Under the pieces are notes generated by a model. It was not told the DNA's origin and did no database searches. It saw only the letters and a program-made list of their open reading frames with translations. Below are positions 19,685-40,971 of a stretch of 64,000 bases of DNA, in pieces. How positions within the stretch are numbered: the first letter of the stretch is position 1; each line of letters begins with the position of its first letter. Origin of the DNA: Candidatus Promineifilaceae bacterium. GTDB lineage: Bacteria; Chloroflexota; Anaerolineae; Promineifilales; Promineifilaceae. The position numbers were made by a program, and so were the translations under genes. Where the stretch lies: assembly GCA_049614105.1 (NCBI GenBank), contig JBMZDF010000001.1, positions 24,338-88,337 of the forward strand, given 5' to 3'.

Positions 19685-20803
19685 ATGCAATCTCTCGATC
19701 TCGATCTGCTGTTACAAATCGCCTCACAGATTACCTGGGTCTTTTTCTCAGTCTATGTCGTCACTGTTACTATTCGGTCGGCAATTCGACACGGTATTCT
19801 GCGTGCAGGTCTCGAACTGCTGACCTTTCGCGTTCTCCTGCCGCTCATGTTGCCGATTGTTATGTCGTTGATCAGCATGTCGGTCGTTTTTGTGCATCCA
19901 CAGCAGGTTGGCGTCGTTGTGTCGATTATGCTGCCTGGTGGTGTGCGTCCAGAGGCAATGCCGGCTGGTCTGCACTTCATCATCCCTCTGATCGAATATG
20001 AGGTAATCTATCCAATTTCTTGGCAAACATATACGATGTCAAGCAAAGTCGGCGAAGGAAACGTTCTGGGCGATGACTCAATTCGCGCTCGTACAAGCGA
20101 CGGGCAGGAAGTTCTAATCGACACGTCCGTGATTTTCCGCATCGATCGCGAACAAGCCGTGACGCTTTATATCGACTGGCAAGAACGGTACATCGAAGAT
20201 TTTATGCGCCCTGTGTTGCGCGGCTATGTGCGCCGCCAAGTGTCACAATTCACGGTTGAGGAAGTTAACAGCTCATCACGGCGCGATCTTGAAGCATTAC
20301 TTGATCGCCTGTTGCTAGATGAATTTGAGGATAAAGGCTTGGTTCTCGATCAGTTTTTGTTGCGCGATATTGCGTTTTCGCCAGAGTATGCGCTAGCGGT
20401 TGAGAAGAAACAGGTGGCGCTAGAAGGGCAACAACAAACGCTGTATGAGGCACAACAAGCGATCAACATTGCCACAGGCAACGCCAGCGCGATTGAAATT
20501 GAGGCAAACGGACGGGCAACAGCGATCAAACTGGAAGCGGAAGCGGAAGCAGAGGCCTTAAAGCTGATTGCGGCAGCATTGGAAACAAACGACCAGCTAC
20601 TGACGTATGCGTATATTGAGCAACTCGCCCCCAACATTGATGTTATGTTGCTTCCAAACGACGCACCGTTCCTCTTTCCACTGCCTGACCTTAAACAAAA
20701 TGATGTGGTGACACAAACGATTACCACCACAGTCGAAGAAACGCTCGAAATCGTGCCTCCCCCATTTCTGACACCTGTGCCAGAAAATGCTATTAAGGAA
20801 TAA
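19685..20803 (+). CDS. SPFH/band-7 (prohibitin/HflC-like) membrane protein
   Basis: Two N-terminal hydrophobic segments are followed by GLHFIIPLIEYEVIYPISWQTYTM...DGQEVLIDTSVIFRI...LLRDIAFSPEYALAVEKKQVA and an Ala/Glu coiled coil. Confidence 0.8.
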   Translation: MQSLDLDLLLQIASQITWVFFSVYVVTVTIRSAIRHGILRAGLELLTFRVLLPLMLPIVMSLISMSVVFVHPQQVGVVVSIMLPGGVRPEAMPAGLHFIIPLIEYEVIYPISWQTYTMSSKVGEGNVLGDDSIRARTSDGQEVLIDTSVIFRIDREQAVTLYIDWQERYIEDFMRPVLRGYVRRQVSQFTVEEVNSSSRRDLEALLDRLLLDEFEDKGLVLDQFLLRDIAFSPEYALAVEKKQVALEGQQQTLYEAQQAINIATGNASAIEIEANGRATAIKLEAEAEAEALKLIAAALETNDQLLTYAYIEQLAPNIDVMLLPNDAPFLFPLPDLKQNDVVTQTITTTVEETLEIVPPPFLTPVPENAIKE

Positions 20804-20805
20804 GT

Positions 20806-21543
20806 ATGGAGCATAAAGCACCCCAATTGAGTCGTATCAGTCAGAAACAACTGTTGGTCGATAAATTCTTAACTTGGATGCCTGCTAGCGATGCAACCGC
20901 TTGGCTGAGAGCCTTGTCTGCAACTGAGCAGGCGACAGCCATCCACGAGATCGCCGCGTTTTGCCAAGATGCGGGCTTTGAGTTGTCGTGGGTTGTCGAA
21001 AACCAAATCGGCAATGAGCAGTTGGCCGATCTGTTGAAGCAGTCCGTGTTGCGTAGCGTCGAAACGCTGCACAGCGCCAGCATCGCGCAGCCGTTGCTAA
21101 CAACGTACACGGCACTCGTCAAATGGTTAAACAACCCGATCAAGCGTGGCTATCGTAAACAAACGCGCCAAATTTATATTCGGCTAGTCGAACAAGGCGT
21201 CATTGCAAATGCAGACGCAGCTATTTTGCTCAATAGTGACAAATTGCGCTGGGACTATGTTCAGAAAGCGCTGTTGACGGCGTACCGTGAGGACGCGGCA
21301 GCGGTTGAATCGGCCGTGCAAGCAATCATCGTTAATGAGCCAGAGGCGGCTGAAACGCCGCAGCGGGCGTGGTGGTATTTCAGCCACAGGATAACCATCA
21401 TGCCGATTGGAATTGTGGAAACAGCCCTCGTTCTAACATTGGCACGTGGCGCACAGGGGCGCATTCGCAAACGGCGGCGACGTAAACGCCGCCGACAATT
21501 TTTTCACGCTCAGCGTTCACTGAGCAAACAGGAGTCACAATGA
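20806..21543 (+). CDS. Uncharacterised paralog family X, copy 1, with a C-terminal hydrophobic segment and a poly-Arg/Lys tail
   Basis: It shares the core W(L)..L...E......FC...GF.L.WVVE.QI..E.L... and the region ...YR(K/P)(Q/K)T(R/Q)..Y..L..(Q/D)GVI with 33790, 37509(-) and 38561. Confidence 0.6.
   Translation: MEHKAPQLSRISQKQLLVDKFLTWMPASDATAWLRALSATEQATAIHEIAAFCQDAGFELSWVVENQIGNEQLADLLKQSVLRSVETLHSASIAQPLLTTYTALVKWLNNPIKRGYRKQTRQIYIRLVEQGVIANADAAILLNSDKLRWDYVQKALLTAYREDAAAVESAVQAIIVNEPEAAETPQRAWWYFSHRITIMPIGIVETALVLTLARGAQGRIRKRRRRKRRRQFFHAQRSLSKQESQ
21472..21504 (+). terminator. Intragenic GC-rich hairpin plus T-run, terminator-like, inside the poly-Arg coding segment
   Basis: cggcggcg (21472-21479) and cgccgccg (21487-21494) flank the loop acgtaaa, followed by acaa and tttttt (21499-21504). 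Confidence 0.35.
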
Positions 21544-21977
21544 TTACACTCACTTCAATCCTTACTTTTGTATCTGGCTCGCTGATTGGCGGATTCTGTA
21601 CTCGCCAGGTACGTCGCTGGCGGCAACAACGTACGGTAGTTATGCTGAAGGAACCTACCCCAAACGAGCCTATACTGACTGACCCTGTTGTAAACGCGCC
21701 TGTTTTAGAGGAGCCGACACCAAACGAGCCAGTCTTGGTTGAATCTACACCAGATGAGCCTGTTGATGTCCCTGAAGCGAAAGAGGATAATCTTCAACAA
21801 ATTGCGGGCATCGGCAGGGTCTATGCAAAACGGCTGCAAGCGGCAGGTATTCGTTCATTTGCCGATCTCGCGCAACGTACACCACAAGAAATCGTCGCTT
21901 TTGTTACAGCAAGCGGCACGCCGCAACCTAACGTTGAGCCATGGATTATTGATGCAGCACGACTTGCTGCGGCCTAA
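21540..21977 (+). CDS. Membrane-anchored Pro-rich protein with a C-terminal helix-hairpin-helix motif
   Basis: It has an N-terminal TM, EPTPNEP(I/V)L repeats, and IAGIGRVYAKRLQAAGIRSFADLA (HhH-like). Its ATGA overlaps the upstream gene. Confidence 0.6.
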   Translation: MITLTSILTFVSGSLIGGFCTRQVRRWRQQRTVVMLKEPTPNEPILTDPVVNAPVLEEPTPNEPVLVESTPDEPVDVPEAKEDNLQQIAGIGRVYAKRLQAAGIRSFADLAQRTPQEIVAFVTASGTPQPNVEPWIIDAARLAAA

Positions 21978-22017
21978 TGTTGAGTCTCTTGTTAACATCT
22001 TTTAATAACTAAAAATT

Positions 22018-39166: not shown

Positions 39167-39245
39167 TCTGTCAGCACAATCATAACGACTGTCGTTCATC
39201 AGATAAGTTCAGTTTCTATCTTCTCAAAAATCTGCGGTAAATGCT

Positions 39246-39270
39246 CATTCCACTGTTCTGCGGTGGAATG
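39246..39270. repeat. Hairpin CATTCCAC-tgttctgcg-GTGGAATG, second copy of the hairpin at 13271-13295
   Basis: It has the same loop apart from one substitution (tgttctgcg vs tgctctgcg) and the same 8-bp stem apart from one compensatory pair change (G:C to A:T). Confidence 0.75.
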
Positions 39271-39504
39271 TCGCTTTTTCCGTTATGCTTCCTGAATGCC
39301 TAAAGTTTTAACTATCCGTAAGTAGCCGTCTTGAAAGTTAAAAACTCAGCGTTCTCTGCGTTTCTACGGTTCAATCCCCTTAAGGGTGTAGGATTGAATT
39401 AACTGTTGGGCATACACCTACCGACCTCTGGAGGGGTCCAGTGGGTCAAACAATCCACCTTTCTAAGCGGCCACGTTATTTTCGGAACTGGCCGAAACTA
39501 ATGC

Positions 39505-40971
39505 ATGACATTTAGCCTCCCATCCCCCCGTAACTGGCAACTGCCTATCCCTACTGAAACCCCCGATTGGCTAACGACCTCATATAAAAAGCAACAGCGA
39601 TTACGTTCTAAGCTCACGAGACGTATACAGGACATGCTGCCGCAGGAACAAACCGATCAACGGCTTCTGCTATCGTCGCTGTCGTTGGGTATGACGGCAA
39701 CAGCTTTTGTTGTGCCATCTGCAAGCGGGTTAGCCGTGATGAGTTTGCCACTGTCGCTGGCTGTCTTTGCACCTACGCTCCAAGATGCGTACCAAACTTT
39801 GCGCGAGGAGCGGCGCATCAACAATGATGTTCTCACCGCAACACGGCTTGGTCTCTGTACCGTCATGCACTTTTACGGCATTGCTGCGCTCGATGCGTTT
39901 TTGCAAAGCGTCAGCCGTAAGCTGCATATGCAGTCCGAGCAAGATTGGGAAGCGACACGTCAGTCGATTATTTCCCAATTGGCTACTGATGAGGTAACAG
40001 AACAGCGGCTCGCGTCATGGTTTACGCATAGTGTGGAGACGCAATCGGCCGTTCAAACCCGTGGAGCGCTACAGGCCGATCGGTTCGCGCCGTATATGTT
40101 TGCATCCTTTTTTGCCACGCTGCCGTTTTATGATGCGGGACGCGCGGGGGCATTTTTGATGACCAGTTTCGGGGCGCACACAAATATGCTCAGCCCCACA
40201 ACGGTGCGCGATTTTGTCAATCAGGCGGCTCATCATAGTATTTTGGTGCGGGATGCGAGGGCGCTGGAATCGGCCGAAACGTGCGACCTTCTCATCATCA
40301 ATACCGATCTGCTGGCTAAACACACGGCACGTTCTAACTTCAGCTTGGCGCTCAAAGCCCTACGCCAACAACATCCCGACCTCCTCGTTATCGCTATCTC
40401 CCACAAACAAAACACCCCAGCCCGCGCCATCTTGCATCGCACGGTAGGGTTGGACGAATGGATTTGCGTCGCGTCTCAAGCGGACCAAGTTGACACGCTC
40501 CAAACATTTCAGCGGCAAGGGCGGCATGTTTGCTATATCGGTGATGGCATCACCGATCAGGCATTGTTATCGGCCGCGCATCTGTCAATCGCCATCAATC
40601 CGCAGACGATGGAGTCTGACAACCCCGCCCATATCATTCTGTTAGGTCAAGATCCCTTCACCCGTTTGGATCACCTGTTCACGCTGGCAAGCCAATTTAA
40701 TCACAGGCAAGCGTTCAATTTCAAAGCGCCCATCGTGTTTGACGTTCTCGACATCACGACAACGATAGTGATTCACTTTGGATTGTTCTACTCGGTGCTG
40801 TTTAACTATAGTGGTCTGCTGCTTAGCACGCTTAACGCCCGTGAACCTTTTTGGTGGTTCAAACAAGACCGCAAGCGCAAAGAAACGAAGCAATTGTCTG
40901 CACCAATACAATGGACACCTAACGCGCTAGACGAGAACAGCCAAGTGGAACCACAGCACAGCACAACCTAA
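39505..40971 (+). CDS. Degenerate P-type-ATPase-like membrane protein, second copy
   Basis: The N-terminal TM pair aligns with 10014 and 22018. The DKTGT position reads IINTDLLAK and TGD reads ISHKQ. It retains YIGDGITDQALLSAAHLSIAI. No actuator/TGES region is present. Confidence 0.6.
   Translation: MTFSLPSPRNWQLPIPTETPDWLTTSYKKQQRLRSKLTRRIQDMLPQEQTDQRLLLSSLSLGMTATAFVVPSASGLAVMSLPLSLAVFAPTLQDAYQTLREERRINNDVLTATRLGLCTVMHFYGIAALDAFLQSVSRKLHMQSEQDWEATRQSIISQLATDEVTEQRLASWFTHSVETQSAVQTRGALQADRFAPYMFASFFATLPFYDAGRAGAFLMTSFGAHTNMLSPTTVRDFVNQAAHHSILVRDARALESAETCDLLIINTDLLAKHTARSNFSLALKALRQQHPDLLVIAISHKQNTPARAILHRTVGLDEWICVASQADQVDTLQTFQRQGRHVCYIGDGITDQALLSAAHLSIAINPQTMESDNPAHIILLGQDPFTRLDHLFTLASQFNHRQAFNFKAPIVFDVLDITTTIVIHFGLFYSVLFNYSGLLLSTLNAREPFWWFKQDRKRKETKQLSAPIQWTPNALDENSQVEPQHSTT

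Follow-up and report, generated by a model that had tools for sequence, protein, structure and literature searches.

A window of 64,000 nucleotides from a Candidatus Promineifilaceae metagenome-assembled genome (MAG; contig JBMZDF010000001.1, locus tags ACPG8W_001xx-002xx) carries four open reading frames (ORFs), A, B, C and D, that encode members of a single protein family, to which we give the label FAM. The family is widespread, and its gene belongs to the core of a conserved cluster of membrane-protein genes, which also encodes an SPFH-domain protein, pentapeptide-repeat proteins, an atypical P-type ATPase and a peptide exporter. None of the libraries searched places either the family or the composition of the cluster, and the function put forward below is an inference. 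The four copies in the window are as follows.

20806-21543, plus strand: FAM_A, 245 aa, the A-type paralog, predicted to be soluble, with the family domain comprising the residues to ~198.
33790-34431, plus strand: FAM_B, 213 aa, with the full family domain and an N-terminal transmembrane (TM) helix; it begins 33 nt past the pseudo-cyclase gene described below.
37509-38216, minus strand: FAM_C, 235 aa, with the full family domain and an N-terminal TM helix; divergent from FAM_D.
38561-39166, plus strand: FAM_D, 201 aa, with a TM helix, a long linker, the N-terminal two thirds of the domain and a diverged C-terminus.

The NCBI annotation carries all four proteins, at 245, 213, 235 and 201 aa. 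By BLASTP, A, B and C are alike over nearly their full length (A and C, E 3e-33 with 36% identity across 166 aa; B and C, E 1e-27; A and B, E 2e-22), and an alignment of the copies shows the motifs W..L, (F/Y)(C/A)...GF.L.WVV and (K/R)YR..T(Q/R)..Y..L...VIP. FAM_D matches A, B and C at E 2e-5, 1e-6 and 1e-3, spanning just 35-73 aa, in agreement with a preliminary description of this DNA in which the fourth copy was said to share only the first half of the common core. A hidden Markov model (HMM) was also built from 30 distant main-clade homologs, excluding the window and D-type sequences, with E-values scaled to 1.84e9 sequences. Searched against the 370 six-frame ORFs of the window, it matched the four FAM ORFs and nothing else (B, 1.5e-28; A, 1.9e-24; C, 7e-22; D, 3e-14), with the match to D covering HMM positions 7-173. 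Because an HMM lacking window and D-type sequences still matches D at 3e-14, we judge D to be a true member of the family whose C-terminal third has diverged; D-type orthologs are P0007-P0009 and L002:6189-6782. The earlier proposal that the four ORFs are paralogs is borne out by these BLASTP values and by the independent HMM. That the similarity is due to chance, or that the ORFs are not genes, has a negligible probability and is already refuted by BLASTP, the exhaustive search described below and the independent HMM: E-values reach 1e-33 inside the window and 1e-28 against the independent profile, orthologs in other phyla keep their gene positions, the AlphaFold model is confident, and nothing was found in favour of this explanation.

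An exhaustive profile search of 1.84 billion cluster representatives recovered 365 FAM representatives with E<=1e-3, of which 236 have E<=1e-10. Only this exhaustive HMM search brought the family into view, as a word-indexed protein search gave just 3-9 relatives (4 with a 66-sequence profile, amid low-complexity candidates). A typical member is 210-290 aa long; 1-4 residues after the initial methionine it enters a TM helix, which leads through a basic juxtamembrane motif (often LDRRWRAR) and a variable linker into the domain. In the window, a hydrophobic helix is present at residues 1-23 of B, C and D, and A has no N-terminal one. The domain is ~165 aa and is modelled as all-alpha, with the consensus elements F..W, L..WL..LS, FC.DMGFEL.WLV, P.L, V..YC.AC.QA, NP...R...Q.L...LV..GL and R....AI..AA. 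Across 150 aligned members the columns conserved at >=60% are nearly all W, F, L, Y, A or P, including W53 (98%), W64 (99%) and W93 (90%), and the only polar columns at that level are Cys84 (79%), Arg179 (83%), Gln126 and Gln152. Because this is not an active-site pattern, FAM is probably a structural or interaction domain rather than an enzyme.

AlphaFold2 modelled copy C from a 66-sequence alignment with a mean predicted local distance difference test (pLDDT) score of 90.4 and a predicted template-modelling (pTM) score of 0.68. The model has a TM helix at residues 2-24, a flexible linker, and nine helices within residues 43-205, including a 39-residue central helix, and no strands. Neither the window copies nor 62 homologs reach any Pfam-A gathering score; the window copies have no match below E 0.03, and no family recurs. 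NCBIfam (copy C) and PADLOC (copies A and C) likewise gave no match at E<=1e-3. A sequence-profile search of the PDB returned nothing meaningful, the best match being apolipoprotein C-I at E 0.017 over the TM helix and linker only, and Foldseek comparisons of the FAM models gave best E-values of 4.8 (first model) and 6.7 (second model) against the PDB (TMq<=0.26, and <=0.25 for the second model) and 1.3 against BFVD, short of the thresholds set for a match (E<=1e-3, or TM>0.5 over the domain). Thus, the domain that the preliminary description could not recognise has no Pfam, NCBIfam, PADLOC or PDB-sequence match and no fold match in the PDB or BFVD, and nowhere in these library and structure searches does the family map to a well-characterised domain.

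Pfam DUF5958 is matched weakly by 3 of the 66 FAM members (best E 6e-5) but by none of the other 63, including all four window copies, and is itself uncharacterised. Domain fusions are uninformative: the TPR matches in the FAM set stem from one 849-aa fusion protein, and a single DUF188 fusion is probably a merged gene call. A link to the death fold, and so to the neighbouring STAND NTPases, was considered on the strength of an NLRC4-CARD match (E 4.8, probability 0.41) of the first, shallower model and was rejected when the better model did not reproduce it. PADLOC was negative for the FAM, SPFH, pseudo-ATPase and pentapeptide proteins and so provides no evidence of an anti-phage system. We found no description of the family or of its cluster in the literature, an absence that by itself proves nothing.

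The genomic context of FAM was examined in 51 loci, obtained by exact-protein look-ups, from six GTDB genomes (three Candidatus Entotheonella, two Caldilineaceae MAGs and one unclassified MAG) and from 32 metagenome contigs. Locus ORFs were mapped via BLASTP to the annotated window proteins and with the family HMM, so that gene starts are approximate, and adjacency counts were read from stop-to-stop ORF maps; 3 of the 4 extra context loci lie on contigs of <1.3 kb. The window genes that correspond to the recurrent cluster, together with the HhH/DUF4332 gene beside FAM_A, are these.

10014-12230, plus strand: intact P1B-like P-type ATPase with DKTGT, TGES and GDGIND present and without the CPx motif of TM4.
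13429-16167, minus strand: C39-peptidase ABC exporter (peptidase-containing ABC transporter, PCAT) with C39 peptidase, ABC membrane and ABC ATPase domains; conserved in the cluster.
16180-16890, minus strand: small membrane protein 'unk236' with no family match; homologs in L007, L008, L010, L011, L023, L024, L046 and L047.
16671-18845, plus strand: second ABC exporter half-transporter, 'ABC724', with no recognised peptidase domain.
19018-19194, plus strand: 58-aa peptide with a leader ...LKVNTNVRAG, called by NCBI, between the ABC exporter and SPFH genes.
19685-20803, plus strand: SPFH/Band_7 (prohibitin-family) membrane protein (Pfam Band_7, 1.4e-29; 103.8 bits against a cut-off of 23.6), its stop 2 nt ahead of FAM_A.
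21540-21977, plus strand: TM-anchored HhH/DUF4332 protein (Pfam HHH_5 and DUF4332), its start overlapping the FAM_A stop (ATGA).
27084-29300, plus strand: TM-anchored protein with pentapeptide repeats and a UrtA-like periplasmic binding domain; a homolog lies directly 3' of FAM in most loci.
29255-30271, plus strand: pentapeptide-repeat lipoprotein, with a lipobox LIAC after the internal Met of MKQFSLL; it follows the first pentapeptide gene in related loci.
30274-31488, plus strand: TM-anchored PhnS2-like solute-binding protein.

Across ~45 related loci from Entotheonella, Caldilineaceae, and soil and marine metagenomes the genes usually follow one order: (small membrane protein), C39-ABC, ABC, SPFH, FAM, pentapeptide (with or without the periplasmic binding protein domain, PBP), pentapeptide lipoprotein and often a second FAM gene. 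Genes for a P-type ATPase and for a PhnS2-like binding protein are usually nearby, and a small gene for a peptide with a Gly-Gly-type leader often is. In a neighbour-joining tree of FAM sequences these lineages branch deeply. The gene immediately 5' of a FAM copy, in the same orientation, is SPFH in 19 of the 32 loci with a readable 5' neighbour, representing at least six deep lineages; the same adjacency is seen in the separately sampled L048 and in the window, and four further loci have SPFH elsewhere in the cluster. The preliminary description had asked whether linkage to SPFH or P-type-ATPase genes is conserved, and among the 18 non-redundant loci of at least 10 kb it is, with SPFH present in 14 and an ATPase homolog in 11. 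The same 18 loci carry a pentapeptide gene in 15 cases, the second ABC gene in 13 (usually directly 5' of SPFH) and the binding protein in 8, so that the neighbourhoods of homologs do have recurrent partners in the SPFH, pentapeptide and ATPase genes.

The window SPFH protein has HflK as its best, albeit weak, NCBIfam match, and has two N-terminal hydrophobic segments with a basic loop between them. The positive-inside rule, applied to this loop, hints that the SPFH domain may be extracellular and so face the same way as the binding proteins and the lipoprotein.

Several FAM paralogs per locus are normal, with four within 8 kb in L047 and three in L010, and in many soil contigs SPFH is followed by one copy and the pentapeptide pair by a second. 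The tree places A beside L001:10637, B beside L001:9842, C beside L004:8140 and D beside L002:6039. Since each window copy thus groups with a copy from another genome, the four are ancient paralogs and not recent duplicates. Their neighbourhoods are shared as well: B lies directly behind the cyclase gene in both the window and L001 (where the ortholog overlaps the cyclase stop codon), A lies ahead of the HhH and pseudo-ATPase genes in both, and the divergent pair of C (minus strand) and D (plus strand) is also present in L002/L003. The L001 order is ABC, SPFH, Penta-PBP, Penta, solute-binding protein, cyclase, B, A, HhH, pseudo-ATPase and BTAD (minus strand), which is the gene set of window 16671-34431 in more compact form. 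The window therefore looks like a rearrangement that shifted the A-HhH-pseudo-ATPase-BTAD block to just behind SPFH, and such an event would also explain the odd junction between A and the HhH gene.

At this junction FAM_A has a hydrophobic stretch at residues 195-214 followed by RIRKRRRRKRRR. The tail opens at an internal in-frame ATG at 21400, and the appended TM and polybasic segment (21400-21543) reads MPIGIVETALVLTLARGAQGRIRKRRRRKRRRQFF. It is homologous to the start of the DUF4332/HhH protein that follows the A-type gene in L001, which begins MPIGIVETALVISAATGAYNYAKRTGRRRRRRNFF (MPIGIVETALV...RRRRRR.NFF), and the window HhH gene at 21540 carries another TM-plus-basic start of its own. 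Homologs of the HhH/DUF4332 protein come after FAM copies in L001 and L011. The A-type orthologs P0012, P0014 and L001:10646-11251 end soon after a conserved NWWPF and lack the hydrophobic segment. From these comparisons we conclude that the FAM_A 'tail anchor' is a second copy of the 5' end of the neighbouring gene's homolog, fused in frame, and that the A type as such is predicted to be a soluble paralog; the tail itself may be a working anchor, a separately translated mini-gene or an assembly artefact. The N-terminal membrane anchors originally described for three copies stand for B, C and D, but the view of A as an alternatively, C-terminally anchored member does not. The stretch 21379-21545 holds two successive TM-plus-polybasic modules, the first in frame with FAM_A, and one Logan assembly calls this first module as a separate 47-aa ORF (P0177).

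The ATPase encoded at 10014 has TIGR01525 as its best family, above cut-off, and orthologs in 10 of the 18 loci of at least 10 kb. No [CS]P[CHS] occurs anywhere in the nine ATPase sequences that were examined, and the TM segment in the corresponding place varies (NSHF, ASPG, QAHP and others). These CPx-less P1B-like ATPases (window 10014; L002, L005, L007-L010 and L045) make up an uncharacterised clade in which no metal site is evident. Outside the Promineifilaceae-like group the partner ATPase retains DKTGT, TGES and GDGxND. In L045, which lies in a polyketide synthase/nonribosomal peptide synthetase (PKS/NRPS) region, the end of the ATPase gene and the start of the FAM gene share 4 nt, and no SPFH was found in the 20.7-kb locus fetched. 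L011 has FAM directly followed by a 328-aa ATPase-like ORF, L004 has a C-type FAM between two ATPase fragments, and in the window pseudo-ATPase genes come after the A and D copies. Three of the window genes encode degenerate homologs.

22018-23397, plus strand: pseudo-P-type ATPase, 459 aa, a P-domain remnant (PDB CopB P domain, E 2e-8).
31507-33756, plus strand: dCache-HAMP pseudo-cyclase of the class III fold (Pfam Guanylate_cyc, 8.7e-26), aligned to PDB AC5/AC9.
39505-40971, plus strand: pseudo-P-type ATPase, 488 aa (PDB CopB P domain, E 1e-5).

Relative to the intact paralog at 10014, the 22018 product has lost the actuator (A) domain with TGES, has DKTGT replaced by LDQN-C and lacks GDGxND, and its orthologs in L001 and L004 are likewise without all three motifs. 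The 39505 product has the A domain deleted and DKTGT changed to INT-D, with the phosphorylated Asp becoming Asn, and keeps GDGITD. Both ATPase-like ORFs match TIGR01525 only weakly. In the pseudo-cyclase both metal-binding Asp residues are replaced (FADIEGF to FARLRGL, GDCY to SNRY) and the Asn/Arg transition-state pair is lost (WGxTVNxAxR to WGTTVAITDS); in the L001 ortholog, which is 46% identical, the same sites have degenerated (FAELHG, SNQY). Clear pseudo-ATPases were observed in no loci beyond the window, L001 and L004, and the pseudo-cyclase in none beyond the window and L001. Judged by their motifs, the pseudo-ATPases and pseudo-cyclase are truly degenerate, yet specific to this lineage. 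The preliminary description, in which each FAM copy sits beside a catalytically degenerate homolog, was therefore correct as to the degeneracy, with A domains and catalytic residues lost, but these are not the family-wide partners, which are SPFH, the pentapeptide proteins and the intact CPx-less ATPase. Elsewhere in the window, a 491-aa dCache-HAMP protein with no recognisable output domain adjoins a 548-aa cyclic nucleotide monophosphate (cNMP)-binding protein (43390-46522, minus strand); the pairing is notable in that the sole cyclase-domain gene among the scanned window ORFs is predicted to be catalytically dead.

The peptide gene between the exporter and SPFH genes has equivalents at L001:2077-2286, L005:6986-7108, L023:4044-4235 and L031:4672-4797, and also in L032. 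The leader is conserved as ...LKV(K/R/N)T.(I/V/L)(K/R)(A/G)G, whereas the core varies greatly, for example YYLGLVLRGGGGTG or FSFNAFVDNLQ.... By its leader, the 58-aa peptide is a probable double-glycine-type substrate of the C39 exporter, and unk236, which always adjoins exporter genes, is possibly an accessory or membrane fusion protein (MFP)-like protein. No maturation enzyme was found near the leader-peptide gene in the cluster. The closest parallels are the NHLP/Nif11 export pairs, as the cluster exporters have NHLM_micro_ABC1/ABC2 as their best or near-best NCBIfam matches and a leader ending in (A/G)G is adjacent. However, the scores are far under the cut-offs (199 against 853 bits and 124 against 709 bits), the leader belongs to neither the NHLP nor the Nif11 type, the known systems have no SPFH, FAM, pentapeptide or ATPase genes, and the FAM cluster is without a maturation enzyme. 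The window also contains a separate class II lanthipeptide cluster (46815-59206), with a LanM gene at 48123-51239 (minus strand), a glycosyltransferase at 46815 (minus strand), DUF7005 at 52238, HlyD at 53314, a C39-ABC gene at 54045 and a second ABC gene at 56270; with the last two, the window has a second peptidase-ABC/ABC exporter pair.

We tentatively favour, at somewhat below even confidence, a reading in which FAM is a membrane-tethered cytoplasmic adaptor or regulatory subunit in an SPFH/P-type-ATPase membrane complex. SPFH proteins form oligomeric cages that enclose and regulate membrane enzymes, as HflK/C does with FtsH and stomatin with ion channels. A cytoplasmic, non-enzymatic FAM domain would dock onto the cytoplasmic parts of the cluster P-type ATPase, inside a membrane patch organised by the SPFH oligomer, and in this lineage FAM would also dock onto the ATPase-derived pseudo-enzymes and the pseudo-cyclase. 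The paralogs would split these partners, A acting with the HhH protein and the 459-aa pseudo-ATPase, B with the pseudo-cyclase receptor, and C and D with the 488-aa pseudo-ATPase. The domain is predicted to be cytoplasmic because basic residues (DRRWRAR) trail the TM helix, the A type has neither a TM helix nor a signal peptide, and cysteines are conserved.

Several points weigh against this adaptor role. The cytoplasmic topology follows from the positive-inside rule only. The gap between SPFH and FAM is 130-220 nt in most loci, so that tight translational coupling is not general. No ATPase was found in 7 of the 18 long loci within the sequence examined, and when co-expansion of FAM and ATPase genes was looked for the copy numbers proved unrelated, L047 having four FAM genes and no ATPase in 12 kb. 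FAM is equally tightly linked to the pentapeptide genes, whose products are predicted to be extracellular, and the model leaves that link unexplained. Moreover, the genome and metagenome loci were found with the single peptide pattern [DE][MRV]GFELxW[LV][VL], and the main clade is over-represented among them.

A wider and more doubtful interpretation is that FAM is a new fold acting as the cytoplasmic hub of an undescribed trans-membrane machine of ~10 genes in Chloroflexota, Candidatus Entotheonella and uncultured soil and marine bacteria. In such a machine the SPFH cage (predicted to be non-cytoplasmic), the tethered pentapeptide and solute-binding proteins, the exported Gly-Gly-leader peptide and the ATPase without a metal site would cooperate, for example in peptide signalling or envelope maintenance, and duplication in Promineifilaceae would have turned copies of the ATPase and of a cyclase into pure scaffolds (pseudo-enzymes), each with its own FAM paralog.

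Three other explanations each account for part of the context and fail on the rest. Class IIa immunity proteins shield a membrane target, and FAM could similarly be a cytoplasmic helical immunity protein against the exported, bacteriocin-like Gly-Gly-leader peptide. The leader-peptide gene (LKV.T..(K/R)(A/G)G with a variable core) does lie beside the C39-ABC and ABC pair in at least five loci, and FAM is helical, predicted to be cytoplasmic and present as several paralogs per locus. However, FAM is far more conserved than the peptide core, its copy number is unrelated to that of the peptide genes (one per locus), the L045 copy is beside an ATPase with no exporter or peptide nearby, and Foldseek gave no match to bacteriocin immunity proteins in the PDB, all of which make this improbable. 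We consider it similarly improbable that FAM is a signalling adaptor, either tethering or releasing the transcription regulators of the cluster (SARP/STAND or the LuxR-type response regulator) or relaying the state of the Cache-HAMP pseudo-cyclase or of the extracellular binding proteins. The regulators and the pseudo-cyclase are missing from most main-clade loci, with BTAD in only 3 of the 18 long loci, FAM has essentially no extracellular sensing part, and neither anti-sigma nor other known tethering domains resemble it. These absences outweigh the position of the B-type copy directly behind the pseudo-cyclase in the window and L001, that of the C-type copy adjoining BTAD/NB-ARC regulators in the window and L004, and the several orphan extracellular binding domains in the cluster.

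Lastly, the cysteines of FAM (FC...GF and YCxAC) might act as a metallochaperone or thiol switch, making it a metal or redox partner of the ATPase. Cys84 is conserved in 79% of the 150 members, YC.AC (a CxxC) is present in many main-clade members, and the partner ATPase falls by sequence in the heavy-metal P1B lineage. This explanation is nonetheless very unlikely, since the CxxC is under 60% conservation and absent from the four window copies, the partner ATPases are without the CPx metal site, and no similarity to HMA or other metallochaperone folds was observed.

The preferred adaptor reading can be set beside several known systems. In the NfeD/YqiJ-type SPFH partnerships (YbbJ-QmcA, YqiJ-YqiK and YuaF-FloT) a small membrane-anchored protein is likewise encoded beside a co-oriented SPFH gene in many lineages. 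NfeD proteins have a C-terminal OB-fold beta-barrel and multi-pass membrane segments, and are presumed to join the SPFH assembly. FAM differs, as judged against the NfeD description and by Pfam scan, in being single-pass or soluble, in its all-helical model without strands and in having no Pfam NfeD match. HflK/HflC-FtsH and the stomatin-channel systems provide the working model of an SPFH oligomer around a membrane client, for which the P-type ATPase is the candidate here, although the FAM cluster has no protease and the interaction is proposed by analogy; we know of no FAM-like partner in either system. The small regulators KdpF, phospholamban/sarcolipin, FXYD and MgtR/MgtS resemble FAM in having one TM helix, and KdpF is encoded in an ATPase operon much as FAM overlaps the ATPase gene by 4 nt in L045. 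However, they are ~30-110 aa, lack a folded 165-aa cytoplasmic domain and are not FAM homologs, so that the likeness is a functional speculation.

Further window genes lie among or beyond those of the cluster; the first two below without an end coordinate were identified in Pfam/NCBIfam scans.

12243, plus strand: VTT/DedA protein.
25550, minus strand: response regulator of the LuxR type.
23562-25406, minus strand: SARP/STAND-type regulator (Pfam BTAD and AAA_16), with homologs in L001, L004 and L024.
34831-37503, plus strand: winged-helix, NB-ARC and TPR regulator, convergent with FAM_C, with a partial homolog beside the C-type copy in L004.

ParA/MinD-like ATPase genes flank the window cluster (41177-42124, plus strand; 42543-43349, minus strand), and similar genes lie ~1.5 kb upstream of the cluster ABC gene in the distant loci L005 (2146-3009) and L006 (2183-3013); the association may be recurrent or may be due to chance. 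Near the start of the window, 230-6021 encodes a 1433-aa clostripain (Peptidase_C11) protein and then a signal-peptide/TM protein with a C-terminal FHA domain. It is followed at 6310-8071 (plus strand) by five tandem paralogs of a 75-78-aa HTH_17/excisionase-like protein (MEH.Q..SDNK.RLISL.EAAE.YGF...RGRL.AQKVG..W.TTP); this array is 40% GC, compared with ~50% for the window, and is flanked by an FHA protein and a 367-aa protein without a family match. In L001, L002 and L004 the FAM genes are flanked instead by cadherin/Big_9 surface proteins of 1532-2201 aa.

SPFH proteins are present in all domains of life, and to our knowledge few of their bacterial clients and partners have been described. 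FAM provides a conserved and testable candidate partner family for bacterial SPFH proteins, in a cluster that ties SPFH to a peptide exporter, to pentapeptide-repeat proteins predicted to be extracellular and to a P-type ATPase in which no ion site can be recognised. The hosts, Entotheonella and filamentous Chloroflexota, are for the most part uncultured bacteria with large genomes and a wealth of natural products, and the cluster therefore offers a well-delimited system to rebuild in a heterologous host. That an ATPase and a cyclase became predicted pseudo-enzymes in one lineage, and were retained with FAM paralogs, would also be a clean example of pseudo-enzyme evolution in bacteria.

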